Counted from the stretch's first letter, positions 8,326-25,807 are shown. The stretch: DNA of 32,000 nt from Candidatus Syntropharchaeum caldarium (GCA_001766815.1 LYOS01000004.1:163610-195609), one strand, 5' to 3'. The notes: generated by a model not told the origin, from the sequence alone. Made by a program: numbers and translations.

Positions 8326-8338
8326 GTCTGATATATCG

Positions 8339-9478
8339 ATGTATCCGCCACGTATAGGTATCTATGTGGGAGAGGGTGCATCCCACTCATGGATCTGGTT
8401 TGTAGATACGCTGGAGCGTGCAGGGATCTTAAACATCGTGTTTCTTGATGAGAGAAACTGGATGGATATGCTCAGAGCGCTGGACATTCTGATGATCGGC
8501 GGTGGTGATCCCTGTACAATCCAGAAAACACTCGGTAATTACGGACTTGGAAGTATTCTTGAGTTCATCGATGGTGGTGGAATTTATATCGGTTCGTGCG
8601 CTGGTGCATATCTTCCCTTGCGATCGTTTGGCAGGTGCTCTTCGATCTTTGGCGTGGTTGAGGCTGATCTTCAAAACCTCTCAGGTGATGGCAGGGTGTT
8701 CCATCCTGTGCGGGGTCCAATCAGGATCAGAATGAGGGATGAGGTCTTTGATGCGCCACTTTATGGTGGTCCGTCGATCGCTGCTTCAGAGGACATAGAT
8801 GTGCTTGCCTCGTATGATGGCTTTACAGAGAGGACGAGCTTTCTCTCAGATAGGTTTGTGGCAGAGGAGAAACTCATCGGTAATGCAGCCATCATCAGAA
8901 AACGATATGGGGAGGGTGTTTTTTACCTCTATGGGCCCCATCTTGAGCATCCTGATCATTTACTGGCAAACAGAGTGATGATAGAAACGATTGCATCAAG
9001 AAGGGGGAGAGAGTCTGGAGCTTTCAAAGAGGTGGAGGGAAATGTCATTGATCAAAGATGGCTTCGTCGCCTCAAAAGAGAGATCAGTAACGCAAGAATT
9101 GTTGCTCACGGGCTTGAAACATATCCCGTGCGGTGGAAGCTTGGATATAAGATCTGGAATCCAGAAAAGATTGCCTACTTCTTGAACGCAATCTGGAAAA
9201 GACTTGGATACATCGAATCAAGAATTGATGAGGGGATCGCGATGGATTCTGATCCTGATGAGTTTATCAACTCTGCCGCCGATGTAACCGCCTCACTCAA
9301 GCAACTCAGAAGGATGCTTGGGCATGGAGAGGATACAACAGAACTTGCAGCAACGCTATTTCACGATCTTAAAATGCTTACATCGAGTTTTCTCCTGATC
9401 TATCTGGAGGATAAAATGCGAAAATTTAAATATGATAAATTAGAGGTGAGAGACGATGGTGAACGAAGTTTATTTTAA
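8339..9478 (+). CDS. class-I glutamine-amidotransferase-like (BPL_N-type) domain protein with unknown C-terminal helical domain
   Basis: 379 aa. The N-terminal ~200 aa read IGIYVGEGASHSW...ILMIGGGDP...FIDGGGIYIGSCAGAYLPL, a nucleophile-elbow Cys in the G-x-C-A-G context. I recognise nothing in the C-terminal ~170 aa. Confidence 0.45.
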   Translation: MYPPRIGIYVGEGASHSWIWFVDTLERAGILNIVFLDERNWMDMLRALDILMIGGGDPCTIQKTLGNYGLGSILEFIDGGGIYIGSCAGAYLPLRSFGRCSSIFGVVEADLQNLSGDGRVFHPVRGPIRIRMRDEVFDAPLYGGPSIAASEDIDVLASYDGFTERTSFLSDRFVAEEKLIGNAAIIRKRYGEGVFYLYGPHLEHPDHLLANRVMIETIASRRGRESGAFKEVEGNVIDQRWLRRLKREISNARIVAHGLETYPVRWKLGYKIWNPEKIAYFLNAIWKRLGYIESRIDEGIAMDSDPDEFINSAADVTASLKQLRRMLGHGEDTTELAATLFHDLKMLTSSFLLIYLEDKMRKFKYDKLEVRDDGERSLF

Positions 9479-10223
9479 TACTTTCCTGGCGTTTCATGTG
9501 ATTGCACTGATCATATTCGCGCTTGGGATATATCTGAAAGTATCAACCTGGACAAAAGGGAATCTTCATGGTATCACGAAGCATAAGGAGATCGCATTTC
9601 TGAAATTAATTTTCGGTATCATCTTCAGCAAGCATATCATTGAGGTGATAAAGATCCTCATCCTTGATGTGATACTCCAGCGAAGGATCTTTCATCAGGA
9701 TAAAGTGAGATGGGTGATGCACACGCTCATCATCATCGGATTTCTTGGGTTGTTACTGATCGTTGAGCCATTTTCAATCATTTTCCATGGCACAGAGTTT
9801 GGTACGATCTATCCACAGGGTATATTCGCTGATTTCTTCGGTTTGCTCCTGCTCATGGGATTATCGATCGCGGTCTTGAGGAGGTTTATCCTGAAAGCAA
9901 AACAACTCAGAAGTAGTCTGGATGATACAATCTCACTCCTGCTTCTTTTTGTTGTTGTTGCAAGTGGATTTATCGTCGAGGCGGTGAGGTTCATCGATAT
10001 CAAGCCCACGATCGATGTGATCTATTCCTTCTTTGGATACTGGCTCTCAGGATTTGTAGCAAGTTCATGGTCGATCTATCACGATGATCTCTGGCTGATT
10101 CATGCGCTGATCTCAAGCGCATTTCTTGCGTATATTCCGTTCAGTAAGTTCTTCCACATAATTGCAACGCCGATCACGATCCTGATCAGTTCCTACGAAG
10201 AAGAGCACGGGAAGGTGATGTAG
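9456..10223 (+). CDS. hdrE: membrane b-type cytochrome of the NarI/HdrE/DsrM family
   Basis: 255 aa with about 5-6 hydrophobic helices. Conserved His in TM helices (VRWVMHTLIIIGF) and the C-terminal IPFSKFFHI motif typical of HdrE/DsrM/HmeC. It sits immediately upstream of, and is translationally coupled to, an HdrD-type gene. The size matches HdrE. The symbol is tentative; this could be a DsrM/Isp1-type paralogue. Confidence 0.65.
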   Translation: MVNEVYFNTFLAFHVIALIIFALGIYLKVSTWTKGNLHGITKHKEIAFLKLIFGIIFSKHIIEVIKILILDVILQRRIFHQDKVRWVMHTLIIIGFLGLLLIVEPFSIIFHGTEFGTIYPQGIFADFFGLLLLMGLSIAVLRRFILKAKQLRSSLDDTISLLLLFVVVASGFIVEAVRFIDIKPTIDVIYSFFGYWLSGFVASSWSIYHDDLWLIHALISSAFLAYIPFSKFFHIIATPITILISSYEEEHGKVM

Positions 10224-11495
10224 GTGAGTAAGCGAGAAAAAGCGATCAGTATCGATACCCTCAGCATGCGGCAACTGATCGAGTTTGATGCATGCACAAG
10301 ATGCGGCGAGTGTCTTGACCTCTGTCCAACATACTCGGTGAGCGAGGAGAACGAGGCGATCACACCACGAGGTAAGATCCAGAGCTTTAAAGATCTCATC
10401 CGATCACAGTACGGCCTGAGGGCGCGCATATTTGGTCCAAAACCGATAAGTCATGAAGATATGGTAAGGATCAGTGAAGCGATTTACATGTGCTCAACAT
10501 GTGGTCAGTGCAGGGTCGTATGTCCGTCAAAGATCGAAACCGTCGAGTTATGGGAGAGTGGATTGCGGCGTTTGCTCGTCAAAGAGGGTGTTGGTCCCCT
10601 GGAAGCACACGATCCCCTGATAAAGAGTATAAATAACTATGATAACCCATGGATGCAGCCACGCACGGCACGTGATAAATGGGCAAAACCACTGCAGAAA
10701 GCAGCAAAGAAGGCAAAACTCCCAAATCCTGTGAAGAACTTTGCAAAGGAAGGGGGAGAAATTCTGTACTTTGTGGGTTGCACAGCATCGTATGACGTGA
10801 ACCTCAAGCAGGTTGCGATAAACACATCAGAAATTCTGAACAAAGCAGGCGTTGACTTCGGGATCTTTGGTACAAAGGAGAAATGCTGTGGAAGCACCCT
10901 ACTTCGAATGGGTGATTGGGAGGGTTTTGAACGACTGGCAAAAGATAACATCGAGTTATTCAAGGAGCATAACGTCAGGACGATCATAACATCCTGTGCG
11001 GGCTGCTTCAAGACGATAAAAGAGGACTATGCACTGGTTGAGAAACTTGATATCAGGGTGATGCATACGGTTGAGCTACTGGAAGAGCTTATCAGGGATG
11101 GTCGGCTGAAGCTCACCGAGCCACTTGAGATGAAAGTCACATACCATGATCCCTGTCATCTTGGACGGCATACCGGTGTCTATGATGCACCAAGAAATGT
11201 TCTTGGGATGGTGCCAGGTATCGAGTTCGTTGAGATGGAGCGAAACAGGGAGAACTCGTACTGCTGTGGTGCGGGCGGTGGGCAGAAGACCGCATTCCCC
11301 GATATCGTGAAGAAGATATCAGAGGTGCGTGTGGATATGGCAGAAACGACCGGAGCATCAGTCATCGCTCATGCCTGTCCCTTCTGCTACCAGGGACTTG
11401 AGGCTGCGGTTAAGTCGAAGGGATCAGCCATTAAGAATATGGATATAACAGAGATCGTGAATATGTCTTCAGGAAAAGAAGAAAATTCCGATTAA
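10224..11495 (+). CDS. hdrD: HdrD/DsrK-type Fe-S protein with two CCG domains
   Basis: 423 aa. Two ferredoxin motifs (CTRCGECLDLCP, CSTCGQCRVVCP). Two CCG domains (VGCTASYD...KCCGS...SCAGCFK and HDPCHLGR...YCCGAGGG...ACPFCYQG). GTG start directly after the hdrE-like TAG, with an AAGGTGA SD. The symbol is tentative. Confidence 0.7.
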   Translation: MSKREKAISIDTLSMRQLIEFDACTRCGECLDLCPTYSVSEENEAITPRGKIQSFKDLIRSQYGLRARIFGPKPISHEDMVRISEAIYMCSTCGQCRVVCPSKIETVELWESGLRRLLVKEGVGPLEAHDPLIKSINNYDNPWMQPRTARDKWAKPLQKAAKKAKLPNPVKNFAKEGGEILYFVGCTASYDVNLKQVAINTSEILNKAGVDFGIFGTKEKCCGSTLLRMGDWEGFERLAKDNIELFKEHNVRTIITSCAGCFKTIKEDYALVEKLDIRVMHTVELLEELIRDGRLKLTEPLEMKVTYHDPCHLGRHTGVYDAPRNVLGMVPGIEFVEMERNRENSYCCGAGGGQKTAFPDIVKKISEVRVDMAETTGASVIAHACPFCYQGLEAAVKSKGSAIKNMDITEIVNMSSGKEENSD

Positions 11496-11502
11496 ACAAG
11501 AG

Positions 11503-12345: not shown

Positions 12346-12361
12346 AGAGGCGATAGTAAGA

Positions 12362-13003: not shown

Positions 13004-13009
13004 AACTGC

Positions 13010-13056
13010 TTTTTTAATTAAATATACGTATGAAAGGGGTTAAAATAAAACCCCTT
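13010..13056. terminator. bidirectional terminator candidate between convergent genes
   Basis: T6 run at 13010-13015 just after the plus-strand stop. Hairpin AAGGGGTT (13034-13041) / AACCCCTT (13049-13056) with a 7-nt A-rich loop. The right arm overlaps the CBS gene stop. Confidence 0.4.
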
Positions 13057-13679: not shown

Positions 13680-14069
13680 CTATTTATGGCACTCACTATC
13701 CATACATCCCAAATCGCTGTGTCCTACTCCTCCCTTATCGGGGTGAACATTCGTATCCACACCCGAACCATGGCATTGTGTGCAACTTTCTACATACTGC
13801 GATATGTGATCCTCTTTATCTGCATGGCACTTTATACAGTTTGCCCAGTGACCTGATGGCTCAGCAGCCCCTGGGGTTACGGTTGGTGTTACTGTTGGTG
13901 CTGGTGTAGGAGTTGGGGTTGGAGCTGGTGGCGCCTCCTCCCCGAGACATCCTGCCATGAGCACAAGTGATACCACAATGGTTGCGATGATCAGTCTCCT
14001 CATAGCTTCACCTCTCTGTATGCAGCATCCATCTTCGTTGCGATATTTTTTTGTCATATTAGATCCCAT
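13680..14069 (-). CDS. small tri-haem c-type cytochrome, lipoprotein-type signal
   Basis: Two CxxCH motifs (CIKCH, CTQCH) and one CxxxxCH (CMDSECH) within about 55 residues, plus four further His as candidate distal ligands. Signal MRRLIIATIVVSLVLMAGC has a lipobox-like LMAGC, followed by the Pro/Thr linker APPAPTPTPTPAPTVTPTVTP. There are two candidate starts. ATG 14069 has leaderless-type spacing from a TATA box and conserved first codons. ATG 14003 lies 5 nt after a GAGGTGA SD and would give 108 aa. Confidence 0.75.
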   Translation of the reverse strand: MGSNMTKKYRNEDGCCIQRGEAMRRLIIATIVVSLVLMAGCLGEEAPPAPTPTPTPAPTVTPTVTPGAAEPSGHWANCIKCHADKEDHISQYVESCTQCHGSGVDTNVHPDKGGVGHSDLGCMDSECHK

Positions 14070-14098
14070 TTAAATCTTTATCTTCACATTATATATAT
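14070..14098 (-). promoter_or_regulatory. TATA-box promoter module of the cytochrome c gene (copy A of a duplicated module)
   Basis: The minus strand reads ATATATATAATGTGAAGATAAAGATTTAA followed by ATG (14069). The A/T octamer lies 22-29 nt upstream of the ATG, the spacing expected for a leaderless archaeal mRNA. Near-identical to 23320-23348. Confidence 0.45.
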
Positions 14099-14249: not shown

Positions 14250-15317
14250 ATGATGAATTCAAGACATATCACGATAGCCCACGGCGCTGGCGGAGAGACG
14301 ATGCAGGAATTGATTAAAGGCACCATTCTGAGGTATCTCAGCGATCAGAAACAGGCAAAAAAGGTTGCTGTTCCCCTGGAAGCACTGGATGACTCTGCAG
14401 TTATAGACGATATTGTCTTCACGATAGATTCGCATACTGTTACACCGTTGTTTTTTCCTGGTGGTGATATTGGGAGCCTGGCTGTGAGTGGAACGATAAA
14501 CGACATCGCAGTAATGGGTGCTGAGCCAATTGCTTTATCGTCTGCTTTTGTCATCGAAGAAGGCTTTCTTTTTGATAAACTGGAAAAGATTTTAGAAAGT
14601 ATGTGCAGAACATGTGTGCAGGCTGGTGTTCCGATAATCACGGGTGACACAAAGGTGATGGAGAGTGGTGCTATTGAGAAGTTGACAATCACAACTTCTG
14701 CAATTGGAAGAAGAACTGAAATATTAGAGGAAAACCTGAGTGAAGTTAAAAAGTACAGAAAATTAAACGAGAGATGGGTGAGAGACTGCAATCTGAAAGA
14801 TGGAGATAGAATAATTGTTTCTGGGACGATTGGGGATCATGGGATCTCTTTAATCTCTTTCAGAGAGGGGTACGGTTTTGAGAGCGAAGTTCAATCAGAT
14901 ATCACGCCTCTGAACAGGATGATTGAAGAGGCACTGAAGGTGGGTGGTATCGTCTCGATGAAAGACCCAACAAGAGGAGGGCTGGCGAATGCGTTGAACG
15001 AACTGAGCGAAAAATCGAGTGTTGGAATTTTGATAGAAGAAGAGAAAGTTCCGATAAGAGAAGCTGTTAGATCGGCATGTGAGATGCTGGGGATGGATGC
15101 GTTGGAGATAGGAAATGAGGGAAAGGTTGTGATGGGTGTGGTAAAAGAAAAGGCAGAAGAGGTTTTAAAGTCATTGAGAAAGACAGAAGAAGGGAAGGAT
15201 GCAGAAATTATAGGCGTTGCAACGAAAAAAATCAAAGGTGTGGTGATGGAAACGAGTGTTGGTGGGAAAAGGATAGTAGAGGCGCCTGCTGGAGATCCTG
15301 TGCCGAGGATATGCTAA
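14250..15317 (+). CDS. hypE: hydrogenase maturation protein HypE (carbamoyl dehydratase)
   Basis: 355 aa with a PurM/AIR-synthase-like fold signature (HGAGG, DDSAV, TGDTKV). The C-terminus ends in the diagnostic PRIC motif. Confidence 0.92.
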   Translation: MMNSRHITIAHGAGGETMQELIKGTILRYLSDQKQAKKVAVPLEALDDSAVIDDIVFTIDSHTVTPLFFPGGDIGSLAVSGTINDIAVMGAEPIALSSAFVIEEGFLFDKLEKILESMCRTCVQAGVPIITGDTKVMESGAIEKLTITTSAIGRRTEILEENLSEVKKYRKLNERWVRDCNLKDGDRIIVSGTIGDHGISLISFREGYGFESEVQSDITPLNRMIEEALKVGGIVSMKDPTRGGLANALNELSEKSSVGILIEEEKVPIREAVRSACEMLGMDALEIGNEGKVVMGVVKEKAEEVLKSLRKTEEGKDAEIIGVATKKIKGVVMETSVGGKRIVEAPAGDPVPRIC

Positions 15318-16387
15318 CGTCCATGCCTCAACAGTATATTACAACTCCCTTCTCTGGATACCATACAGGGTCCAACAGGATGCTGAGGTGTGCAGGCTCC
15401 TCCAAAAAGTGGACACTCATCAGAATAGATGATTCCTCGCAGAACTTCTCCGCATTTGCACCCCTCTGGCTCTTTAAACTCTCTTTGCTGCAGTTCTTTT
15501 AACTCATCCTCAAATCGTTTTCTTGAATCGTATCTCTCAAATTCCTCTTTTAACGAGAAGCCACTCTCTGGTATAACAGAAAAACCTCTCCAGCCAAGAT
15601 CACTTTGCCTGAAAACCTCGTCCATCACCTTCAGTGCTTTCTTATTTCCTTCCTCTTTAACCACTCTTGTGTATTCATTTTCCACCCTTGCTTCGCCATT
15701 TTTTATCTGCCTGGCGATCATGTACACGCCCATTAACAGATCCAGTGGCTCAAATCCAGCGATTACCTGTGGAACGTTGAATTTTTGAGAGATGAGCTCA
15801 TAAGGCTTTGTTCCTATGATCGTACTCACATGCCCAGGGTCTATGAAACCATCGATCTTCAGCTCGCCCATTTTGAGCAGGACTTCCATCGCGGGTGGGA
15901 TTGCCCTGTGGCATGTCAAAACAGAGAAATTTTCGGGCGGGTTGTTTAGGATGGTAGAGGCAGTGGACGGAGCAGTGGTCTCAAATCCTATCGCCATGAA
16001 CACAAGATCTTTCTCTATCTTTTTTGCGATCTCGATGCTCTCATTTATGCTGTACACCGTTCTTATGTCACAACCCTCTGCTTTTGCATCAAAAAGCGAG
16101 CCATTCTCGCCTGGAACACGCAGCATGTCTCCAAAGGTTGCTATCGTCTTCCCTTTCATCGCTAAAGTAATCGCTTCATCAATCTCCATAGGTGTTGTAA
16201 CACAGACCGGACAACCCGGTCCCTGTCTGATCTCAACACCAGCATCACACAAGAGATCACTCAGTCCAAACCTGACCAGTGTGTCCTGATGTGTGCCACA
16301 GACATGCATGATCCTGATCTCCAGATTGAGCTCTTTCAATCGCTCTAAAATCCTTTTTGCGATATCTTTCTCCCGGTATCTAAACAT
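15314..16387 (-). CDS. hypD: hydrogenase maturation protein HypD
   Basis: 357 aa. HVCGTHQD, GPGCPVCVT, GFETTAP and DPGHVS motifs, and C-terminal CxxH-type cysteines. Its stop overlaps the hypE stop on the opposite strand. Confidence 0.92.
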   Translation of the reverse strand: MFRYREKDIAKRILERLKELNLEIRIMHVCGTHQDTLVRFGLSDLLCDAGVEIRQGPGCPVCVTTPMEIDEAITLAMKGKTIATFGDMLRVPGENGSLFDAKAEGCDIRTVYSINESIEIAKKIEKDLVFMAIGFETTAPSTASTILNNPPENFSVLTCHRAIPPAMEVLLKMGELKIDGFIDPGHVSTIIGTKPYELISQKFNVPQVIAGFEPLDLLMGVYMIARQIKNGEARVENEYTRVVKEEGNKKALKVMDEVFRQSDLGWRGFSVIPESGFSLKEEFERYDSRKRFEDELKELQQREFKEPEGCKCGEVLRGIIYSDECPLFGGACTPQHPVGPCMVSREGSCNILLRHGR

Positions 16388-16390
16388 CTA

Positions 16391-16765
16391 TCAACCCTCT
16401 ACCTCTACCACAATATTCTTTATTTTACACTCGTTTCCACCAACTATTTTAACGGAGGCACCACATGCTGGACATGTTAGCTTTGGGAAGATGTGAAGCG
16501 ATAAATCCTTTTCGTAATCAATTTCACCCTCATATTCACAGCTATTACAGCTAACCATGGCCTTCTTCTCTTCGATGATCAGTTCAGATCTCTCTAATAT
16601 AGAATTTCTGGATAAGACCTCATAGGCGAACTCCATCTGCTCTCTTCCGAAAAGCGTAAGCTCCCCTATCTCCAGGTGAACTTCTTTCACATCAGTTACA
16701 CTGTGCTTTTTCACCTCTTCCAATACAACATCCACAATTTGTGCCATTGTTGAAAATTCGTGCAT
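16391..16765 (-). CDS. hypA: hydrogenase nickel-insertion protein HypA
   Basis: The canonical N-terminus MHEFS (the Met1-His2-Glu3 Ni site) begins at ATG 16765. Zn-finger motifs CNSC...CPAC. The track ORF extends to a GTG at 16789, adding eight residues that would destroy the N-terminal Ni site. Confidence 0.85.
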   Translation of the reverse strand: MHEFSTMAQIVDVVLEEVKKHSVTDVKEVHLEIGELTLFGREQMEFAYEVLSRNSILERSELIIEEKKAMVSCNSCEYEGEIDYEKDLSLHIFPKLTCPACGASVKIVGGNECKIKNIVVEVEG

Positions 16766-16807
16766 GTTCACGCTACGGGTCGAAAACACCCGGTATTCCC
16801 ATCATAT

Positions 16808-17047
16808 TCAAAACTCCTCCCTTAAAACACCAACTCGATCCTCCAAAAGATCTCTCCACAGATCTAAAGTCTCCTTTGCCCCCTCTTCATCGATCACCTC
16901 TATCGCAAAACCAGCATGGACGATTACGTATTCCCCGGGTTTAACATCAACCAGTGATACGTTAACAGTCTGTAAAACCCCCCCAAAATCCACTCTCGCA
17001 TCGTTACCATCGATCTCCACGACTTTTCCTGGAACCGCAAGGCACAT
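16808..17047 (-). CDS. hypC: hydrogenase assembly chaperone HypC/HupF family
   Basis: 79 aa with the diagnostic N-terminus MCLAVPGKVVEI (essential Cys2). Confidence 0.92.
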   Translation of the reverse strand: MCLAVPGKVVEIDGNDARVDFGGVLQTVNVSLVDVKPGEYVIVHAGFAIEVIDEEGAKETLDLWRDLLEDRVGVLREEF

Positions 17048-17077
17048 AAATAAACCTCCATCCTGTCTGTTATATAT

Positions 17078-19273
17078 TTAACGTTCTAATCTCACACCAG
17101 CAACCGCATTCTGTCCAATGGATATTCCGCCATCCCCATTTGGAACTTGATCGTGCGTCAAAAATTCAAGACCACCATCTTCTACGAACTTCTCCACGAT
17201 CTTCACAATCGGTACATTATACGAAACACCGCCCGTGATACCAATATATCTAATCCCATTCGCATTGGCATTCTCAATTGCAACTTCTGTCATCTTCTTG
17301 AGCAAAGCATAAACGAAAGAATATGCCAGATCAGCTTTCCTGGACTTATCTGGATATTCGGATAACTGATCAAACAATGGAAGCGTTCTAACGATTTTAT
17401 CGTCTACCACTTCTGTTTCAAAATCAATTTTCCTCTCTCCTGCATTCAGATACCGCTCAAGTCTCATCGCGGGTTCCCCATCGTACGTCCTTTTAATTCC
17501 AATATCCAGATAACATGATAGTGCATCCAGAACCCGACCAAAGCTACTCGTTGTGGGGCTTTTCTTCATCAAATTTCTCAAAATATCCGTCTCTTTCTCT
17601 TCAAAATAACCTGAATTCTTCCCCAGCATCTCAAAAATCGCAAAAACAATTCTTCTTGGATCTCTGGTGGCTGCATCTCCTCCAATAAGTGGAATCTGCT
17701 CCAAATGCCCTATTCTCTCAAAAGAATCAAAAGAAGAGATCAGAATCTCTCCACCCCAGATACTTCCATCTGTGCCATATCCTGCCCCATCCAGCGTTAG
17801 AGCGATAATTGGTTCTTCTACCCCATTGTCAACCATCAAAGAGACAGCATGAGCCCAGTGATGCTGCACTTCAAATATTTCAGCAGAAAATCTTTCGGTC
17901 AGATCTCTTCCAAAGTGTCTGGTCAGATATCTTGGATGCAGATCAATGCCAATCCCGCTGATCTCTTTTATGTCCAGTAGATTTATCAGATGATCAGTGG
18001 CTGAGGCTAAAAATTCTAATGAGGGATAATAGCTTGTGTTCCCGATGTACTGTGTTATGTAGAGTTCCCCATCTGTTGAAACGCTCACAGAGACGTTTTT
18101 CTCTGCACCAACGCCTATCACGTTTTTTCTATGTGGAACTTTGATTTTATGCGGCACAAAACCCCTCGATCTTCTCAAAAAGAATTTTTTATCATTGTAA
18201 AAACGTATAACCGAATCATCAACTCTGTTTAATATTTCCCTGTTGTGCAGAAGATATACATCCACATTTAAGTTAAACGCATCTTCATTTCTGGTTATCA
18301 TCGGCTCTCCAGGCAGATTTGCAGAGGTCATTATTATGCCATCGCTCTTTAGATAGTGAAAAAAGATATGGTGAAGGGCTGTGTAAGGCAGATAAATTCC
18401 AGCGGTGTCAAGTCCAGGCGAGATGCCATCTAAAACCCCAAACTTATCTTCACTTTTCTTCAAAACAACTACTGGACGCTGGGGGGATCTCAAAGCCTCC
18501 TCTTCATGCTCCCCAATGTACACATACTCACTTGCAGTTTCCAGGTCTCTCATCATAACTGCAAAAGGCTTTGCCTCCCTCCTGTACCATTCTCTGAATC
18601 TTCCCACCTCCTCAAAGTTACAGACCAGGTGCATTCCACCCCAGCTCTTCATTATACCAGTTGCTCCATCATCTATGAACTTTGCAAATGTTTTAATCGG
18701 ATTGCCCTCAATAGCATTTTTCTCTTCATCATAGAGCATGTATTTTGGACCGCACTCTGGACAGGAGATTGTTTGGGCGTGAAATCTCCGATTTAAAGGA
18801 TCTCTGTATTCTTCTTTGCAATTCCTGCACAGGGAAAACTCGCTCATAGAGGTCTTCTCTCTGTCGTATGGCACATCTTTAATCAGAGAGAAGCGTGCAC
18901 CGCAGTTTGTGCAATTTGTGAATGGATAGAGATAACGGCGATTGCCTCTGTCAAATATCTCGTCAAGGCATTCATCACATGTCGCAGTATCTGGTGGAAC
19001 GAGGGAAGATTTTACACCTTCACTGCTTTCCAGGATTACAAAACCTTCATACTTTCCCTGCTCTTCTTTCAATGATATCTCGTCTATCGAGGCGTTATCA
19101 GGGATCTCTCTTCTTAGTGCCTTTAAGAACTCATCTTCTCTTTTATCAAGAAAGATCTCTACATTCGAGCCTTTGTTCAGTACATATCCATTTATCCCCA
19201 GTGAATTCGCAACTCTGTATACAGTAGGACGAAAACCAACTCCCTGTACTGTGCCCTTAACGAAAACCTTCAT
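17078..19273 (-). CDS. hypF: carbamoyltransferase HypF
   Basis: 731 aa. Acylphosphatase-like N-terminus (VKGTVQGVGFRPTVY). Two zinc-finger pairs (CDECLDEI...NCTNCGARF; CRNCKEEY...CPECGPKY). YrdC-like and Kae1-like C-terminal halves. Confidence 0.93.
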   Translation of the reverse strand: MKVFVKGTVQGVGFRPTVYRVANSLGINGYVLNKGSNVEIFLDKREDEFLKALRREIPDNASIDEISLKEEQGKYEGFVILESSEGVKSSLVPPDTATCDECLDEIFDRGNRRYLYPFTNCTNCGARFSLIKDVPYDREKTSMSEFSLCRNCKEEYRDPLNRRFHAQTISCPECGPKYMLYDEEKNAIEGNPIKTFAKFIDDGATGIMKSWGGMHLVCNFEEVGRFREWYRREAKPFAVMMRDLETASEYVYIGEHEEEALRSPQRPVVVLKKSEDKFGVLDGISPGLDTAGIYLPYTALHHIFFHYLKSDGIIMTSANLPGEPMITRNEDAFNLNVDVYLLHNREILNRVDDSVIRFYNDKKFFLRRSRGFVPHKIKVPHRKNVIGVGAEKNVSVSVSTDGELYITQYIGNTSYYPSLEFLASATDHLINLLDIKEISGIGIDLHPRYLTRHFGRDLTERFSAEIFEVQHHWAHAVSLMVDNGVEEPIIALTLDGAGYGTDGSIWGGEILISSFDSFERIGHLEQIPLIGGDAATRDPRRIVFAIFEMLGKNSGYFEEKETDILRNLMKKSPTTSSFGRVLDALSCYLDIGIKRTYDGEPAMRLERYLNAGERKIDFETEVVDDKIVRTLPLFDQLSEYPDKSRKADLAYSFVYALLKKMTEVAIENANANGIRYIGITGGVSYNVPIVKIVEKFVEDGGLEFLTHDQVPNGDGGISIGQNAVAGVRLER

Positions 19274-19938
19274 CTGTCCCCCTCGATCAACGCAGATAAC
19301 AGCTCTTCCACTCCGGTGCCGTGTTTCGCATCGGTCATAAAGAACTTTCCATGAGGGGACAGTCTTTTGAAATCCTCTAAAATAACAGCAGGGTCAACCT
19401 CAATTAGCTCTGCCAGATCGATCTTGTTCAATACAACAAAATCGGTTTGTGCAAAGATCAACGGGTGTTTTCTTACCATGTCATCACCCTCGGTCACCGA
19501 TATAACGACAACTCTTTTCTCAGTTCCTAAAGGAAAATCAACAGGACAAACGAGATTTCCAACGTTTTCAATGAATAATATCTCCAATTTACTGAGATCT
19601 AATGATTCTAAGGCATGATTTATTAAATGGGCATCTAAATGGCATTCTTTCCCAGTATTTACATTTATAGCCTGAACCCCAAGTCTTAAAAACCTTTTAT
19701 AATCGTCATCTCCTGCGACATCCCCCGCTATGGTCCCAGCTCTCATCCCTCTTTCACTCAGCAGATCTATCATCCTCTCGATCAGCGTGGTTTTTCCAGA
19801 CCCTATAGACCCTAAAATGTCGTATGCTTTTACCTCGTGACTTTCCAATACAGACCTGTTCTCCTTCGCAATTCTTCTGTTTACACCAAGAATATCGCTT
19901 TCCATCTGTATATCCACGGTCTTATGCATATGTATCAC
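19270..19938 (-). CDS. hypB: hydrogenase nickel-incorporation GTPase HypB
   Basis: 222 aa. P-loop GSIGSGKTTLIE, IENVGNLVCP and LNKIDL motifs. No His-rich N-terminus. ATGA overlap with hypF. Confidence 0.9.
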   Translation of the reverse strand: MIHMHKTVDIQMESDILGVNRRIAKENRSVLESHEVKAYDILGSIGSGKTTLIERMIDLLSERGMRAGTIAGDVAGDDDYKRFLRLGVQAINVNTGKECHLDAHLINHALESLDLSKLEILFIENVGNLVCPVDFPLGTEKRVVVISVTEGDDMVRKHPLIFAQTDFVVLNKIDLAELIEVDPAVILEDFKRLSPHGKFFMTDAKHGTGVEELLSALIEGDR

Positions 19939-20425
19939 AATAATATAGATCTTGCACTGAATTTAAGCGTGATAATTCATCAAGTATTCGCCTGACAACC
20001 TCTGGAATTGTTTTTTCCACCTCTGGTGTTAATCCGATGCCGAATTCATCACTTTTTTCAACCTCAATCCCCACAATCGTGATATCATCTGGCATCGATT
20101 CTGGCATAATCGTCTCTCCTATCCTGAGCACATCGACCAGTCCAAGATCGTGAAGTGAGAAGTTAACAGATTCTGGTTCTGGCAGATCATTGCCCTTAAT
20201 GATATGGATCGTTCCGATATCACCACCGGTCCTCACAGCATCGACAATGATGATCTTCTCCGCGTCTTCGATCAGGTTCAGGATTGAAAGCCCACCAGTA
20301 CCCGCATCGACCAATTCCACATAATCGGGCAACTCCTCCTTCCTGAGTTCCTCTAAAACGTAGATTCCAATGCCATCATCTAAAGCCAGAGGGTTTCCAC
20401 AGCACAGGATCAGAACTTTTTTCAA
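19922..20425 (-). CDS. [NiFe]-hydrogenase maturation endopeptidase (HyaD/HybD/VhoD family)
   Basis: 167 aa. N-terminal LILCCGNPLALDDGIG motif (GN-x4-DDG-x-G). Positioned directly after the large subunit. Confidence 0.85.
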   Translation of the reverse strand: MKKVLILCCGNPLALDDGIGIYVLEELRKEELPDYVELVDAGTGGLSILNLIEDAEKIIIVDAVRTGGDIGTIHIIKGNDLPEPESVNFSLHDLGLVDVLRIGETIMPESMPDDITIVGIEVEKSDEFGIGLTPEVEKTIPEVVRRILDELSRLNSVQDLYYCDTYA

Positions 20426-20431
20426 TTTATC

Positions 20432-21985
20432 TTAAACCACCTTGACCTCGTACTTCTTTCTGCTATCCCTCAGGTCCACTGTATGCACGGCACATGCTAT
20501 ACATGGATCGAACGAGCGGACGGTATGCAGGATCTCAATCGGATTGTCTGGAGCAGTTACTGGTGTACCAACTACAGCCTGTTCAACAGCCCCCAGCTTG
20601 CCATCATCATCACGTGGCGAGCAATTCCATGTTGTTGGGACTACGAGCTGGTATCTCTCCAGTTTACCATCTTTTATACTTGCCCAATGCCCCAGTGATC
20701 CTCTGGGTGCCTCTGTCAAGCCTACCCCGGTTGCTGAACTCGGCAGTTCTGCAGGCTCATAGAACTTCCCATCTATGTCAACACCAAGAAGCCATTCCTT
20801 CAGTTTGGCGAGAACCCTCACAGCCTCATGAAGTCTCGCCAGTGTTCTTGTGTACACATTTGCACCAAGTTTGGTAGCCAGGTCAAGAACCAGGGGGTCT
20901 CTGTCATTGATCATTCTTGCCAGTGGACCCACCTCTGTGGGCATGTCATTATATCGTGGAGCCTTCATCCAGGTATACTTATCTTTGCTCGTGAAGTCTG
21001 GATCCTCAATTGGTTCTGTGAACCCCTCGTTAGGATGCTTTCCACCAGTATAGCCACTATACCATGAATACGCTATGTACTCAGTTACTTTTTCTGGATC
21101 AAAGGCATTGAAGTCTCCATCATAAAATCCGGGCTTCAACCATCTCCCATCCCCCTCATAAAATGCGCCATATGAGAGGAATCCACACTCACCTGCCCCG
21201 TACCCACCATATGCATGAAGTCCGAGGTTGATATCTTCAATCGGGCCCCCATATCGAATCAAAAGACCTATATCGCTATTTGCATGGCTTTCGCTTTCGT
21301 CTAACCAGGCCACCACATCATCCAGGCTCCTGTTCTCCAACCACCGATCAACGGAGCACCCAAGTACCTGTTCTTCTACGAAGCTCTTACTCTCTAACCA
21401 CAGTGAATATGCTTTAACAATGTCTCCAACGTCAGGCCTAACTGTAACTCCGCCAGGTATATACGTCATGTGATGGGGCATCTTCCCACCGAAGATGGCT
21501 ATGATCTCGTGGAGCTTTTTTCTGACCATAACTGCCCTGATCCATGAGCTACCTGTAAACGCAGCAAATCTACGGCTAAGTTCATTATATACACTGCCGG
21601 CCCCCGCCGCCTCTAAAATGTCTTTGTATACAGGATTTGCCAGATCTGGTGCCCATAATGCATAAAAGTGTGTTGCATGACTCATTATATTATTGGAGCC
21701 CAATATGATGTTCCTGATCAGTTTCGCATTTTCTGGCACAGAAGCATCAAATGCATCATCCAGACACCGTATCGATGCTGTGGCATGCGCTACTGGACAG
21801 ACTCCACATGCTCTTTGAGTTATGATAGAAGCATCTCTTGGATCCCTTCCTATCAGTATGTTCTCCAGTCCCCTGTACATCATGCCAGAACTCCATGCAT
21901 CCGTTACTTTTCCCCCATCTACATTTGCTCTGATCTTTAAATGCCCTTCAATTCGTGTTAACGGATCGATGGTCACTTCTACCAT
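20432..21985 (-). CDS. [NiFe]-hydrogenase large subunit (group 1-like, membrane/extracytoplasmic uptake type)
   Basis: 517 aa. N-terminal RIEGH. Ni-Fe ligand motifs QRACGVCPVAH and C-terminal DPCIACAVH, followed by a 16-aa extension (TVDLRDSRKKYEVKVV) of the kind removed by the endopeptidase. It pairs with a Tat-signal small subunit. Confidence 0.92.
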   Translation of the reverse strand: MVEVTIDPLTRIEGHLKIRANVDGGKVTDAWSSGMMYRGLENILIGRDPRDASIITQRACGVCPVAHATASIRCLDDAFDASVPENAKLIRNIILGSNNIMSHATHFYALWAPDLANPVYKDILEAAGAGSVYNELSRRFAAFTGSSWIRAVMVRKKLHEIIAIFGGKMPHHMTYIPGGVTVRPDVGDIVKAYSLWLESKSFVEEQVLGCSVDRWLENRSLDDVVAWLDESESHANSDIGLLIRYGGPIEDINLGLHAYGGYGAGECGFLSYGAFYEGDGRWLKPGFYDGDFNAFDPEKVTEYIAYSWYSGYTGGKHPNEGFTEPIEDPDFTSKDKYTWMKAPRYNDMPTEVGPLARMINDRDPLVLDLATKLGANVYTRTLARLHEAVRVLAKLKEWLLGVDIDGKFYEPAELPSSATGVGLTEAPRGSLGHWASIKDGKLERYQLVVPTTWNCSPRDDDGKLGAVEQAVVGTPVTAPDNPIEILHTVRSFDPCIACAVHTVDLRDSRKKYEVKVV

Positions 21986-21987
21986 TT

Positions 21988-23175
21988 TTATTCCCTCCTA
22001 TCCTTGAGATATCGAGCTGCTGCGAGGGTCCCTGCCCCAACCGCCGCTGCTGCACCGAATCCTGGTGCCACCTCTTCTGTTGCCGTTGGCGTTCCTGTTG
22101 GCGTTGCCGTGGGTGTAACTGGCGTTGCCGTTGGTTTTTCAACAGATGATGTTGCTGTGGCCCCTGATGGAAGATAAAACGGAGATTTACCATCCGGGAA
22201 GTCTGGCTCAGCACAACCAATACATGGTGCGCCTGCCTGGGTGCACATGTTTCTACCGTTGTTCCAGAGCCTCAATGGGCACTCAGCCGAAGTAAATGGA
22301 CCCTTGCATCCAAGCCCATATAAACAGTACTCCATTCCAAATTTCAGAGCTTCATAATAGCCCCTTCTCGGACATGTCTCATGGATTGACTCTCCAAAGA
22401 ACGCTGTGGGTCTATTATACTCATCCAGCTCTATATCACCCGTTTTTCCAAGTATAACCGCAGCCAGTGTGGACATGACCCAATCAGGATGAGTTGGGCA
22501 ACAGGGGAGATTTATCACAGGCAATCCAGCCTTTGATCTATAGTTCTCCCCCAAAATCCCACCTTTCTCCTTTCTATAGAACTGGAGCCCGCTACAATCA
22601 CTTGGATTCGGATCTCCCGCAGGTATTCCACCATAAGAGGCACAGGATCCAACAGCCACTGTAGCCAGTGAGTGGGGTGCCAGATCTTCTATGATCTTCT
22701 TAAATGGTTCTCCACCAACCCTGCAGAAATTCCCTGTGCCATCTGGACCCCGCGGGATAGCACCTTCAACAACCAGCACGAAGTCCTTTTCACTCTCTTT
22801 GATCAGCTCCAAAGCATAGTTCGCATTTAAATCAGCGTTCTCTACAGGCACTCCATCAACAAAAAGACCCTGTTGAATCATCACTGTCTCCCAGTATTGT
22901 GGAACGACGTTCAGATCCATTATCGCCTGGATCACATCAGGTTGTTCTGCATTCAGGAAGGAGATGGTGCATCCCGCACAGTCCTGTCCTTCTAACCATA
23001 TAAGATTGGTACTGGTGCTACTTTCCATAAGTCCTCGTACAATCTCTGTCTTATATGTCCCCAGAAAAATACTGGCGCCCACTGCTCCCACAACTTTAAG
23101 AAAAGTCCTTCTATCCAGATTCAGTATATCTATATTCCTTAGATCTTCTATTTTTGTTAATTTAAGATCCTTCAT
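21988..23175 (-). CDS. [NiFe]-hydrogenase small subunit, Tat-exported, with C-terminal Thr/Pro linker and PGF-CTERM signal
   Basis: 395 aa. Twin-arginine signal LDRRTFLKVVGAVGASIFLG. Fe-S ligand motifs WLEGQDCAGC, GSCASYGG, HETCPRRG, CLYGLGCKGP and CIGCAEPDFPD. The C-terminus is ...KPTATPVTPTATPTGTPTATEEVAPGFGAAAAVGAGTLAAARYLKDRRE. Confidence 0.92.
   Translation of the reverse strand: MKDLKLTKIEDLRNIDILNLDRRTFLKVVGAVGASIFLGTYKTEIVRGLMESSTSTNLIWLEGQDCAGCTISFLNAEQPDVIQAIMDLNVVPQYWETVMIQQGLFVDGVPVENADLNANYALELIKESEKDFVLVVEGAIPRGPDGTGNFCRVGGEPFKKIIEDLAPHSLATVAVGSCASYGGIPAGDPNPSDCSGLQFYRKEKGGILGENYRSKAGLPVINLPCCPTHPDWVMSTLAAVILGKTGDIELDEYNRPTAFFGESIHETCPRRGYYEALKFGMEYCLYGLGCKGPFTSAECPLRLWNNGRNMCTQAGAPCIGCAEPDFPDGKSPFYLPSGATATSSVEKPTATPVTPTATPTGTPTATEEVAPGFGAAAAVGAGTLAAARYLKDRRE
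21991..22065 (-). other. PGF-CTERM archaeosortase-type sorting signal (last 25 codons of the small subunit)
   Basis: PGFG, then a 14-residue Ala/Gly-rich hydrophobic stretch, then the basic tail RYLKDRRE. It is preceded at 22066-22167 by a Thr/Pro-rich linker. This matches the tripartite PGF-CTERM architecture by eye; no HMM was run. Confidence 0.6.
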
Positions 23176-23319
23176 TTAAATCCCCCCAAAGTATCCAGAG
23201 TTGTGGCTGATCCCGGCCGTCTCCATTGTCTCGAACGCGATAGCAGTCCTGCTGAACGTACGCCTCGACAGTTCAACATCATCAAATAAATTATACTTTT
23301 CAGTCACATTTGACCCCAT
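23176..23319 (-). CDS. 47-codon upstream ORF / leader peptide preceding the hydrogenase small subunit (hypothetical)
   Basis: My translation is MGSNVTEKYNLFDDVELSRRTFSRTAIAFETMETAGISHNSGYFGGI*. The TAA at 23178-23176 abuts the small-subunit ATG (23175) in the same frame. A TATA-like octamer lies 22-29 nt upstream of its ATG. The first nine codons are shared with the cytochrome c ORF, differing mainly by synonymous changes. It is too short for the supplied ORF track. Confidence 0.45.
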   Translation of the reverse strand: MGSNVTEKYNLFDDVELSRRTFSRTAIAFETMETAGISHNSGYFGGI

Positions 23320-23348
23320 TATAAACTTTAACTTCACAATATATATAC
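23320..23348 (-). promoter_or_regulatory. TATA-box promoter module of the hydrogenase operon (copy B of a duplicated module)
   Basis: The minus strand reads GTATATATATTGTGAAGTTAAAGTTTATA followed by ATG (23319). The spacing and sequence match 14070-14098. A purine-rich GAAAAG (BRE-like) lies immediately upstream. Confidence 0.45.
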
Positions 23349-23508: not shown

Positions 23509-25497
23509 TCACTCATCTTTGGTGTTCATCCTCTGTTCAAGTGATACAAGCGGTCTACATCGTTCACAGTAGCGAAGCGGTTCCACATCTATCCCCTGCT
23601 CGCATAATCTCTTTTTAAGTGTTTCATACAGCGCCTCGGTTGTGTATACCTCCCCACACCTGGCACATTTCACGGGTTTGGATGATGCGAGTTCATCCTC
23701 TTCCTGCCTGATCGTCTTTGAAAGATCCAAAACTGCCTCAATCCTGATTGCACTCTCTGGGCATGCTTTTTCACATAATCTACAGTTGATGCACTCTCCG
23801 TGTCTGAAAAAGATTCTATTCTCCTCCTTTCTCAGCGCTCCTGCAGGGCAGACTGCAGTACATGCATCACAGACCGTGCATCTTGAATCAATCGTTGCGA
23901 CACCAAAGGCACTGGATGAGATCTTGAGTTCGGGTATTTTACCGGTTTTATCTGAGAGACTCCTGATTAAAGCAAGAAAAACCGCTCGATTTTTGAAATC
24001 ATCGAGTTCACACATCTTCTTCTTTCGAATTCTGGACGGTGTGAGCTGGCCGCTAAATTCTGTGATTGCTTCTGTGAAGGCATCGGGATCAAATACTTGA
24101 GTTATGAGCATCCTATCCTTGAGATCTAAGCCGTCAAGACATTTCCTGATAAAATCCTGATCAATCCCAGTCTCACCAAGAATTATAACTCCGTCTGCAC
24201 CCGCATCAAGCGCACGGAGAATGTGTTCCACAGATAGAGCCAATGTTGAGGGGAGAAAAAGGGGAAGTATGGGTGGATAGCTCATTCTGAGCCGTCCAAC
24301 CTTATCGAGTAGCTTTTTTCCTGCTTTCAGGTCCGTGAATAAGATTATGCGGGGTTTGAGATCTTTTGCGCCTGTAAGTAGCCGTTCGATCATTGTAAAA
24401 ACTCGTTCATTTGGGAAAAAAGTTAATTTCAGGAGTGATAATGGACAGAGCGAAGCACATAATCCACACCCTTCGCACGATATCTCGTCGATCTCAAGTT
24501 TTCCATCTGGCTTGCGTGTTATCGCACCATTCGGACAGGTGCAGAGTGTGCAGCCTGAAAGCCCATGTGCGTATGATGCACAGTCTGTGAGATCGTGATC
24601 CAGATACCTTGGCTTCTCGATACTATCAAAGTTGCTTACAACCTCTGCAACAAGCGATGCAGGATCTTCTTCGTTGGCGAGATGTATTCCACTTCGTATG
24701 GTTGTGAGCGATTCATCTTCGAGTATTATCTGTCCAGCACCAATCAGCCTGCTCTCGGGGGTGAGGTTGATGGCATCAGCCGGACAGACCCCAATGCACT
24801 TCCCGCACAGTGTACACGCATCTGTGATAGAATATATCATACCATCAAGAATCGCTCTATCATCACAAACTTCGATACACCGTCCGCATTCAATACAGTG
24901 ATTCTGATCAAGTCGATTCGGATCAAACTCAACTTCAAACGCACCTATTTTTCCATAGATTGCCTTTGGTTCACCAATATAAAATTTAATTCCGTTCAGG
25001 CTGTTTAAATTTTTCGGATCTGATGTGAGGATTGAAACATCTGAAATCTTCGCAAGAGATGGTGCAAGATTGTAGACACCCTTTCCACCGATCATAATCA
25101 GAGATCTCCCAACATTCCGCTGGATTGTCCCTTCAATTTCTGGATCTTCCATCAGTGCAAGATTGATTATACCTTTTGCCTTCTGCGTGCCATCACGCTT
25201 GTTATGAACCCATCCACACGCTTCTCTGATATCCACAAGCTTTGGCGGTGGCAATTCAAGCGTTCTGGCAAGGTCATCAAAGATCTCCTGTTTCTTTTCG
25301 CAACCCGCAATCAATATCCTCTCGGGTTTAAAATTTCTGATATAATATGTGATATGGTTCAATCCATCAGCATGACATAGAAAATCATGCGTCTCAACAA
25401 CGCAGAGCTCATCTAATTTTCCAAACGTTTTTTTGAGATCTTTGAATGAGAGTTTGATCGTGCCTGCACAGGAACAGAGAAAGAGACCTGTATGCAA
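23509..25497 (-). CDS. multi-[4Fe-4S] protein (polyferredoxin / HdrA-MvhD-like architecture), cytoplasmic
   Basis: 662 aa. At least five ferredoxin-type motifs (CIECGRCIEVC, CTLCGKCIGVCP, CEGCGLCASLCP, CTVCDACTAVCP, CINCRLCEKACP). N-terminal LFLCSCAG Cys motif. A central region RIILFTD...ALDAGADGVIILGE resembles a Cys-depleted MvhD/FlpD-like domain. C-terminal CxxC...CxxC ribbon (CARCGE...CERCRP). No signal peptide. TTG start 5 nt after a GAGGTGAT SD that overlaps the tatA stop. Confidence 0.6.
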   Translation of the reverse strand: MHTGLFLCSCAGTIKLSFKDLKKTFGKLDELCVVETHDFLCHADGLNHITYYIRNFKPERILIAGCEKKQEIFDDLARTLELPPPKLVDIREACGWVHNKRDGTQKAKGIINLALMEDPEIEGTIQRNVGRSLIMIGGKGVYNLAPSLAKISDVSILTSDPKNLNSLNGIKFYIGEPKAIYGKIGAFEVEFDPNRLDQNHCIECGRCIEVCDDRAILDGMIYSITDACTLCGKCIGVCPADAINLTPESRLIGAGQIILEDESLTTIRSGIHLANEEDPASLVAEVVSNFDSIEKPRYLDHDLTDCASYAHGLSGCTLCTCPNGAITRKPDGKLEIDEISCEGCGLCASLCPLSLLKLTFFPNERVFTMIERLLTGAKDLKPRIILFTDLKAGKKLLDKVGRLRMSYPPILPLFLPSTLALSVEHILRALDAGADGVIILGETGIDQDFIRKCLDGLDLKDRMLITQVFDPDAFTEAITEFSGQLTPSRIRKKKMCELDDFKNRAVFLALIRSLSDKTGKIPELKISSSAFGVATIDSRCTVCDACTAVCPAGALRKEENRIFFRHGECINCRLCEKACPESAIRIEAVLDLSKTIRQEEDELASSKPVKCARCGEVYTTEALYETLKKRLCEQGIDVEPLRYCERCRPLVSLEQRMNTKDE

Positions 25498-25510: not shown

Positions 25511-25807
25511 TCATTGAGAAGCGAGCTTTTCTCGAATTAGCATCTTTATATCTTCATCACTCATGCCTTCGATATCGATACCAAGATCTTTTGCAGCTTT
25601 CCTCAGGCGTGCAGATTCAGATTCTTCGGTGCTCATTGCCAGATTCTCGCCCACCTTGAGTTCCCTCTCAACTTCCATTTTTGCTTTCTTGAACTCGCCC
25701 ATTGCACTCCCTAAACTCCTTGCAAGTTCAGGCACCTTTGATGCACCAAATAGCAGCAAAATAATGGCTAAAATTAAAATTATCTCAGTCGGTCCAAGTC
25801 CAAACAT
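25511..25807 (-). CDS. tatA: twin-arginine translocase subunit TatA/E
   Basis: 98 aa. [42 protein letters not shown] is the canonical TatA TM helix, hinge (FG) and amphipathic helix. GAGGTAAG SD. Confidence 0.9.

Follow-up and report, generated by a model that had tools for sequence, protein, structure and literature searches.

The hydrogenase and its described relatives

The closest described counterparts of the enzyme presented here are the Vht and Vho hydrogenases of the Methanosarcinales (VhtGAC/VhoGAC, HydDB group 1k). The gene in question encodes the small subunit of a [NiFe]-hydrogenase and lies on the minus strand, at 21988..23175, of a 32,000-nucleotide stretch of Candidatus Syntropharchaeum caldarium DNA (LYOS01000004.1:163610-195609), which was analysed as a whole and is referred to below as the window. 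The small subunit is 44–49% identical to those of Vht and Vho, and has in common with them the LDRRTFLK signal for twin-arginine translocation (Tat), an Ala/Gly-rich C-terminal helix followed by basic residues, and a dedicated protease and hyp genes nearby; in a neighbour-joining tree it nests among them. It differs from them in the absence of VhtC, in a Tyr that replaces the His of the tail, and in a 34-residue Thr/Pro spacer with the tripeptide PGF in place of the LxGxNIDT motif. The reading that we prefer, with a probability of roughly 0.55, is that of a Tat-exported hydrogenase of Vht/Vho descent that has lost its cytochrome b, is tail-anchored on a spacer and is coupled to c-type cytochromes. 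The enzyme itself is already known from the literature; what is new is a Vht-derived, cytochrome-b-less, tail-bearing form on a long spacer.

Four other groups of proteins bear on this comparison. The periplasmic [NiFe] and [NiFeSe] hydrogenases of Desulfovibrio and Desulfomicrobium (groups 1a/1b, linked to cytochrome c3) are likewise Tat-exported heterodimers without a cytochrome b; a small multihaem cytochrome c, separate from the enzyme, serves as their acceptor, for which the window offers only a candidate. A TmcB/HmcF/DsrK-like and NarI-like module encoded not far from the window hydrogenase recalls the Tmc, Hmc and Dsr conduits. Unlike these soluble enzymes, the window hydrogenase keeps a C-terminal tail and belongs to an archaeon, with no outer membrane; unlike the [NiFeSe] enzymes, its large subunit has Cys, not selenocysteine, in the DPCIAC motif. 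An N-terminal lipid on the large subunit serves as the anchor of the [NiFeSe] enzyme of D. vulgaris. The small subunits HyaA and HybO of Escherichia coli resemble the window protein in combining an N-terminal twin-arginine signal with a single C-terminal helix on one polypeptide, and Tat-dependent C-tail anchoring is established for them (PMC10924467); their tails pack against the cytochrome b HyaC or the HybB/HybA module, and have neither a long Thr/Pro spacer nor PGF.

Substrates of archaeosortase A (ArtA), such as the S-layer glycoprotein of Haloferax volcanii and PGF-tailed multihaem cytochromes of Methanosarcinales and anaerobic methanotrophic archaea (ANME), show the same succession of Thr/Pro region, PGF, hydrophobic stretch and basic end, and a Methanolobus example, PGFEAILAVAGTISALMFMRRRRE, equals the window tail in overall length. 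In contrast with these, it is Ala/Gly-rich, much less hydrophobic, and can be aligned with the non-signal anchor of its relatives. Lastly, the group 2a enzymes (Huc of Mycobacterium smegmatis and cyanobacterial HupSL) include the nearest solved structures and have large subunits of similar length; they are cytosolic and have no Tat signal, whereas the window small subunit has both an RRTFLK signal and a C-terminal anchor.

The small subunit is a protein of 395 residues ending in ...KPTATPVTPTATPTGTPTATEEVAPGFGAAAAVGAGTLAAARYLKDRRE, and is an exact match to OFV67552.1 of the butane-oxidising archaeon Ca. Syntrophoarchaeum caldarius. It passes the TIGR00391 hidden Markov model (HMM) with 185.8 bits (cut-off 179.5) and also matches the Pfam small-subunit domains PF01058 and PF14720. 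In NCBI and UniRef, OFV67552.1 is wrongly named '[Ni-Fe]-hydrogenase large subunit'. The Tat signal region comprises residues 1-45 (23041..23175, minus strand), with the twin arginines R22-R23 at 23107-23112; residues 21-27 read DRRTFLK, and R22, R23 and F25 are near-invariant in an alignment of 50 homologues. Generic Tat models score slightly under their cut-offs (TIGR01409, 15.8 vs 16.7 bits; PF10518, 17.0 vs 22.7). The export route named in the first-pass annotation of this DNA, made from the sequence alone, is thus borne out by a motif kept across these homologues, and all the features that it described in the small subunit are present; the one correction is that the gene lies on the minus strand. 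By its motif and its homology to Tat-dependent relatives, the small subunit would carry the folded heterodimer out through Tat. The signal and one helix no more than 50 residues from the C-terminus stand on the same polypeptide, the arrangement of a tail-anchored protein.

Probable loss of cytochrome b and origin of the tail

Among the best 120 homologues of the small subunit, the clade of the window gene consists of P0001 (98% identical), L070 (98%) and P0002 (79%; its locus is L001). L070, on a 2.5-kb contig, was added by a metagenome scan; a scan of genome contigs with the small subunit gave no close relative, the best match being a Methanosarcinaceae metagenome-assembled genome (MAG) at 43% identity. 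In a neighbour-joining tree of the core regions, the clade is nested inside the Vht/Vho-like archaeal radiation. A tail of the form '...LxGxNIDTxxKAAVGAAxxxAGxHAxRR...' is nearly universal in that radiation, with an Ala/Gly helix, a conserved His and then basic residues; the His motif (H-A-x-R-R) is carried by 63 of the first 120 homologues. In position, length and composition the window tail matches this form, with Tyr in place of the conserved His, and the LxGxNIDT juxtamembrane motif of the cytochrome-b-linked relatives is lost in the clade. On the simplest reading, the tail is the inherited Vht anchor in modified form.

The gene for the partner of that anchor is missing from the window. 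The operon runs in the order small subunit, large subunit, protease and hyp genes, and the large subunit starts 2 nt past the small-subunit stop and the protease 6 nt past the large-subunit stop; both the order and the gaps are as first annotated. A tblastn search with a VhtC-type query found nothing in the 32-kb window, and nothing at L001, L069 and L097, the orthologous loci; PF01292, the family of the dihaem cytochrome b VhtC/VhoC, is not among the precomputed Pfam calls on the matching contigs. The initial observation that the operon encodes no VhoC/HyaC-type cytochrome b holds, and extends to the whole window.

Inspection of related loci shows a correspondence between the type of tail and the neighbouring redox gene. 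Two loci with a His tail, L004 (P0006) and L007, have a VhtC-like cytochrome b neighbour. The window, L001 and L069, with a PGFG and Tyr tail, have no cytochrome gene within the operon or beside it. In L005 (positions 10001-13263 of a metagenome contig), the small subunit P0008 has a tail with AGFG...SY (...VAGFGALEATIAAGGSYAVAKLL, AGFG instead of PGFG), and a 174-residue tetrahaem cytochrome of the NapC/NirT type, encoded immediately after the large subunit, takes the place of cytochrome b; the other member of the P0008 clade, P0015, comes from a Methanocellales MAG. An independent cytochrome-b-less Vht-like hydrogenase is found in Methanolobus sp. WCC4 (CP150629.1; L067, 6001-10207), where TatA is followed by the small subunit (P0036) and a 597-residue large subunit; here the small subunit has a long Ser/Thr/Gly linker and a Tyr replacing the tail His (...SAAYAARK), and a convergent gene encodes a heptahaem cytochrome c with a bona fide PGF-CTERM signal (PF18204, 30.8 bits). 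In L068 (P0009, tail ...AAQQGRK) there is no cytochrome, with only Tat genes nearby. In the loci inspected, all four non-His lineages are without cytochrome b and two of them have c-type cytochromes instead; the pattern, to which the familiar vhtGAC and vhoGAC operons conform, suggests that cytochrome b docks on the His-bearing helix, and that its loss leaves the tail free to diverge.

The tail of the window protein consists of three parts, all on the minus strand. The Thr/Pro-rich spacer (residues 337-370, 34 residues; 22066..22167), within which T or P occupies 14 of 20 residues, is an insertion relative to the Vht-type relatives. It is followed by PGF (residues 371-373; 22057..22065), directly before the terminal helix, and by the Ala/Gly-rich helix and basic tail (residues 374-395, GAAAAVGAGTLAAARYLKDRRE; 21991..22056). 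In OFV67552.1 the peptide GAAAAVGAGTLAAAR is followed by YLKDRRE, so that the protein closes with ...AAARYLKDRRE. AlphaFold2 places a terminal helix at 374-394, and residues 333-388 form an unstructured stretch of low confidence (predicted local distance difference test below 50). Among 267 diverse small-subunit homologues, PGF and a Thr/Pro spacer before the terminal helix are found only in this clade, where spacer, PGFG, Ala/Gly helix and KDRRE are all kept in the window gene, P0001, L070 and P0002. The PGF that leads into the helix is conserved and clade-specific.

It had been proposed at first that this layout is a PGF-CTERM signal, processed by archaeosortase. PGF does stand immediately N-terminal to the hydrophobic segment, after the spacer, and a basic cluster lies at the extreme C-terminus, although such a cluster is also found on ordinary Vht tails and does not discriminate. 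The hydrophobic stretch, of about 15–17 residues, fits PGF-CTERM in length and ordinary Vht tails in hydrophobicity. That the layout is an archaeosortase signal is not established. After weak matches to the whole protein, tail scores were calibrated on isolated tails with a positive control and negative controls, against cut-offs of 18.8 bits for Pfam PF18204 (gathering threshold) and 24.5 bits for TIGR04126. The positive control, the tail ...PGFEAILAVAGTISALMFMRRRRE of the heptahaem cytochrome encoded beside the Methanolobus hydrogenase, gave 30.8 bits on PF18204 and 23.1 bits on TIGR04126. The window tail reached 10.2-10.5 bits on PF18204, below the cut-off, and gave no match to TIGR04126, on which the tail of the 79% orthologue P0002 scored 12.5 bits; ordinary Vht tails gave nothing on the PGF-CTERM models. 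Because the scores lie below the cut-offs, the tail fails the formal tests, and its resemblance to a PGF-CTERM signal is superficial.

The profiles nevertheless see something in the tail. The only models that touch it, in both HMM libraries, are PGF-CTERM itself and the C-termini of four PGF-anchored families (E 0.007-0.8 overall, and 0.007-0.4 for the weak matches of the four families). Changing the P of PGF to A in silico removes the weak PF18204 match, and grafting PGF onto ordinary Vht tails in silico does not create one, so that the window tail resembles PGF-CTERM slightly beyond the bare tripeptide. It can be asked whether this is a divergent signal, such that after Tat export and a passing insertion of the helix ArtA would cleave near PGF and attach an archaeal lipid, with the spacer possibly O-glycosylated. 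We consider this possible but doubtful. The position of PGF (371-373) right before the predicted helix, with KDRRE at the extreme C-terminus, the confinement of such a tail to one clade among the 267 homologues, and the synonymous change of each of the P, G and F codons in the 79% orthologue all speak for it; so does the weakness of a helix that, with no cytochrome b beside it, would be more apt as a transient signal than as a permanent anchor. Related archaea also place PGF-CTERM on extracellular redox proteins, as in the Methanolobus heptahaem cytochrome and on small ANME multihaem cytochromes (PMC9012536), and sortase substrates provide a bacterial precedent for sorting-signal processing of Tat substrates (PMC10924467).

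Against a signal stand, besides scores far below the curated thresholds (10 bits vs 18.8, and no TIGR04126 match), the composition and hydrophobicity of the tail, which match the ancestral Vht anchor and not real PGF tails. A crude Hessa sum gives 4.99 for the window tail and 5.35 ± 1.35 for 63 His-type Vht tails, compared with 1.77 for a genuine PGF tail and -0.27 for an ordinary transmembrane helix of the same organism. The tail sits where the ordinary Vht-type C-terminal anchor sits, with the same Ala/Gly composition and hydrophobicity; this outcome, like the low profile scores, was one named at first as counting against the proposal. PGF is also one substitution away from a non-signal sequence, since the related cytochrome-b-less clade of P0008 has AGFG at this position. 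About 45 kb of genome, made up of the window and its flanks (8 kb and 5 kb, from Logan contigs of the same organism), showed neither artA nor a second protein with a PGF tail; two secreted proteins encoded in the flanks have an ordinary transmembrane helix and a lipobox. Of the related groups, ANME-2 are reported to have ArtA, and the sister order ANME-1 is reported to be without archaeosortase A and S-layer proteins (PMC5244752). Nor is a Thr/Pro spacer specific to PGF here: a lipobox cytochrome encoded in the window has one after its N-terminal anchor. The fuller proposal, in which a divergent archaeosortase signal evolved from the cytochrome-b-docking helix and yields a lipid-anchored hydrogenase on the outer leaflet that exchanges electrons with tethered multihaem cytochromes, appears a shade less probable still.

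Comparison with the 79% orthologue also bears on whether the tail is functional at all. From PGF onwards, the two proteins agree at 21 of 25 positions; the changes in this segment are 7 synonymous and 5 conservative amino-acid ones, and each codon of PGF has undergone a synonymous change that leaves its amino acid as it was. The small-subunit core has 86 synonymous and 44 amino-acid changes. The spacer is the least constrained segment of the gene, with 8 synonymous and 13 amino-acid changes. A decaying remnant on an effectively soluble, pseudo-periplasmic hydrogenase, with PGF as a chance tripeptide, would agree with the very weak hydrophobic stretch and with the complete lack of a tail in several relatives (P0011, P0070 and bacterial forms of 317 residues). 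It is made very improbable by the purifying selection on the tail next to a drifting spacer, and by the retention of spacer, PGF, helix and KDRRE down to 79% overall identity.

The same conservation, with the tail from PGF on about as constrained as the catalytic core, would be expected if the helix docked another integral membrane partner in place of VhtC, for example the NarI/HdrE-like cytochrome b encoded 12 kb away together with an HdrD/TmcB-like protein; the coupling of the enzyme would then still be with the quinone pool of the membrane or with heterodisulfide chemistry, and not with cytochromes c, soluble or tethered. The tail, as read directly, abounds in the small-xxx-small patterns that characterise packed helices, a NarI-type cytochrome b and a CCG protein are encoded in the window, and in the P0008 clade a membrane-anchored NapC/NirT protein has taken the place of cytochrome b directly downstream of the large subunit. 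This is unlikely all the same: no gene for a membrane protein lies in or next to the operon in four orthologous contigs, a flexible spacer of 34 residues would keep the distal Fe-S cluster away from a membrane partner docked through the helix alone, and the LxGxNIDT juxtamembrane motif is lost.

Candidate redox partners

If the tail is an inherited anchor, as in the preferred reading, the Ala/Gly helix of its Vht-type ancestors would keep the enzyme attached to the membrane on the outside; that helix is now at the end of a flexible Thr/Pro spacer of about 34 residues, with the cytochrome-b-associated His changed to Tyr. Since there is no cytochrome b dock, its most likely electron partners would be extracellular c-type cytochromes, as for the periplasmic hydrogenases of Desulfovibrio.

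A candidate is encoded in the window at 13680..14069 (minus strand), beside hypE. The predicted protein is a small c-type cytochrome with a lipobox signal (LVLMAGC, lipobox LMAGC), a Thr/Pro spacer (APPAPTPTPTPAPTVTPTVTPG) and a domain of about 60 residues with three haem-type motifs, CIKCH, CTQCH and CMDSECH. It gives a weak match to Cytochrome_C7 (13.9 bits) and is weakly similar to c3-type genes near hydrogenases of Desulfomicrobium and Desulfovibrionaceae; a sequence search of the PDB returned nothing meaningful.

The cytochrome and hydrogenase genes have an upstream sequence in common. A 44-nt promoter/leader element (ATATATAWTGTGAAGWTAAAGWTTAWAATGGGRTCWAATRTGAC) is present on the minus strand at 23303..23346, upstream of the small-subunit gene, and at 14053..14096, where it precedes the cytochrome open reading frame (ORF) and runs into its start. 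The two copies are about 80% identical and hold a TATA-like box and a leader-ORF start, MGSN(V/M)T(E/K)KY; in the first copy the TATA-like sequence ATATATAT is located about 20 nt before the ATG of the leader ORF. A further common stretch, GAAAAGTAT, is found just upstream of the element. The degenerate 44-mer matches twice in the window, with no matches expected (100 shuffles); it is not present upstream of the 79% orthologue in L001. The shared element points to common transcriptional control of the hydrogenase operon and the cytochrome gene, and by its position and by analogy with Desulfovibrio the small lipobox cytochrome is the best candidate for the redox partner of the hydrogenase.

The leader ORF of the first copy belongs to a 47-codon upstream ORF (MGSNVTEKYNLFDDVELSRRTFSRTAIAF..., 23176..23319, minus strand) whose TAA stop abuts the small-subunit ATG; it is annotated as a hypothetical protein of 59 residues (OFV67553.1/SCAL_001471) and is called as a gene in L069 and L097. 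Part of it (...DDVELSRRTFSRTAIAF...) has the look of a degenerate duplicate of the Tat signal that the small subunit itself carries (...DILNLDRRTFLKVVGAV...).

A possible conduit across the membrane is encoded on the plus strand at 9456..11495, by a NarI/HdrE-like membrane cytochrome b (255 residues) and an HdrD/TmcB/DsrK-like CCG iron-sulfur protein (423 residues). The assignments are based on PF02665 and PF02754 in the gene calls of L096 and on matches to the NCBIfam models TfrB, TmcB, DsrK and HmcF. Upstream of the pair, at 6771-8325 (plus strand), lie genes for a small ferredoxin and a truncated-looking aldehyde:ferredoxin oxidoreductase-like protein. The genes from 6771 to 11495 could form a transmembrane module of the DsrMK/Tmc type, linking extracellular cytochromes to cytoplasmic disulfide chemistry.

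By analogy with Desulfovibrio, a tethered enzyme that exchanges electrons with a tethered small cytochrome c would be the most economical model, with the NarI-like cytochrome b and HdrD/TmcB-like pair as a possible route through the membrane. This membrane topology and this cytochrome partner are what we infer for the hydrogenase; catalysis would probably run in the direction of H2 evolution, or of equilibration between H2 and cytochromes, during alkane oxidation. A linker-extended extracellular hydrogenase with a separate protein as electron acceptor had already been deduced at first sight of the sequence, and this part of the deduction is supported: the enzyme is spacer-extended and faces outwards from the membrane, and its redox partner must be a separate protein.

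A number of points weigh against the preferred reading. As regards the anchor, the helix looks too weakly hydrophobic (Hessa sum about +5) to be a stable anchor on its own, and in the relatives it presumably leans on the cytochrome b that is missing here; PGF is located exactly where an ArtA signal would have it, after a spacer like that of S-layer glycoproteins, and, as described above, it is kept through synonymous codon change and has a profile resemblance that goes slightly beyond the tripeptide. As regards descent, the tree of small subunits is a simple neighbour-joining tree, and the correlation between tail and partner comes from few lineages (two with His, four independent ones without). 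As regards the partner, proximity (8 kb) and the common upstream element are the only links between cytochrome and hydrogenase, and no homologue of the small cytochrome is found beside the orthologous hydrogenases, on contigs that end too soon.

The operon, its surroundings and their meaning

The large subunit (517 residues, 20432..21985, minus strand; PF00374, 5e-107) is an exact match to OFV67551.1. In the alignment it shows the motifs RIEGH, RxCGVCxxxH (here RACGVCPVAH) and DPCIACAVH, the last followed by a C-terminal extension of 16 residues; the Ni-binding CxxC pairs, this extension and a protease gene 6 nt downstream together mark the catalytic core of a [NiFe] enzyme. The length of 517 residues had been thought short for a group-1 enzyme, and is below the 597 residues of the one Methanosarcinaceae large subunit compared (from the cytochrome-b-less Methanolobus locus); it is an ordinary length in sister clades (516–541 residues) and in Huc (513–515), and the idea of an unusually short subunit was rejected.

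The nearest solved structures for both subunits are those of Huc (7utd/7uus; 7uus_A, 2.9e-108 for the large subunit, and 3.9e-63 for the small), followed by [NiFeSe] enzymes, and NiFeSe models are the best NCBIfam matches for the hydrogenase. Despite this nearest structure, the Tat signal read in the small subunit is incompatible with a cytosolic group 2a enzyme. In one paper OFV67551 was used as a 'Group 2a' outgroup (PMC6176080), in keeping with the nearest structure; the label is an annotation problem, as the partner subunit bears a Tat signal.

Downstream of the large subunit, the maturation endopeptidase (19922..20425, minus strand; TIGR00072, 146 bits, above the cut-off; PF01750) is followed by a hyp cluster (14250..19938, mixed strands). 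On the minus strand, hypB (19270-19938), hypF (17078-19273) and hypC (about 16808-17077) were assigned from the HypB, HypF and HypC Pfam calls on the orthologous contig L069, and hypA (16391-16789) and hypD (15314-16387) from CxxC pairs and GPGCPVC, respectively, read in the translations; hypE (14250-15317), with a C-terminal PRIC in its translation, is convergent, on the plus strand.

Upstream, the cluster is headed by a TatA/E translocase subunit (25511..25807, minus strand; TIGR01411, 71.5 bits, above the cut-off), and a cytoplasmic polyferredoxin of 662 residues (23509..25497, minus strand), with a segment like MvhD/FlpD and like the C-terminus of HdrA, adjoins the hydrogenase operon. The succession of TatA and polyferredoxin directly upstream of the hydrogenase promoter is kept in the 98% relatives and not upstream of the 79% orthologue. 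The polyferredoxin was considered as an obligatory subunit of the hydrogenase and rejected, as it lacks an export signal and is not encoded upstream of that orthologue.

Beyond TatA, a multi-transmembrane protein of 356 residues without a family match is encoded at 25906-26976, and a MoxR-like AAA+ ATPase (289 residues) followed by a 347-residue protein like a VWA-type partner at 26982-28860 (plus strand), divergent from the TatA-hydrogenase cluster. The product of a flanking gene, replication factor C, is 100% identical to its Ca. S. caldarius counterpart and 83-85% identical to proteins of other Ca. Syntrophoarchaeum MAGs.

The hydrogenase of Ca. Syntrophoarchaeum has been described as membrane-bound and highly expressed in propane and butane oxidation, with its function unknown (PMC9539880). 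Electrons in alkane-oxidising consortia may be passed on as H2 or directly via cytochromes. Were the tail an archaeosortase signal after all, this would be the first [NiFe] hydrogenase known to be processed by archaeosortase and anchored by a lipid, possibly with a glycosylated spacer; the substrate range of archaeosortases would widen to respiratory metalloenzymes, and the consortia would be able to switch between interspecies electron transfer by way of H2 and its direct form.

For Vht-type small subunits in general, the loci compared here give a working rule, drawn from few lineages, by which a His in the tail goes with a cytochrome b, and where the His has been lost the cytochrome b is lost too, in some cases with c-type cytochromes in the neighbourhood; such a rule could help to annotate archaeal hydrogenases. 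For the alkane oxidisers, what is added is an outward-facing enzyme without cytochrome b, whose upstream control sequence is apparently common to it and a tethered cytochrome c. Because the cytochrome b is missing, there is no direct link to quinone or methanophenazine via a VhtC-type protein, and the wiring suggested is instead from the hydrogenase to an extracellular pool of cytochromes.

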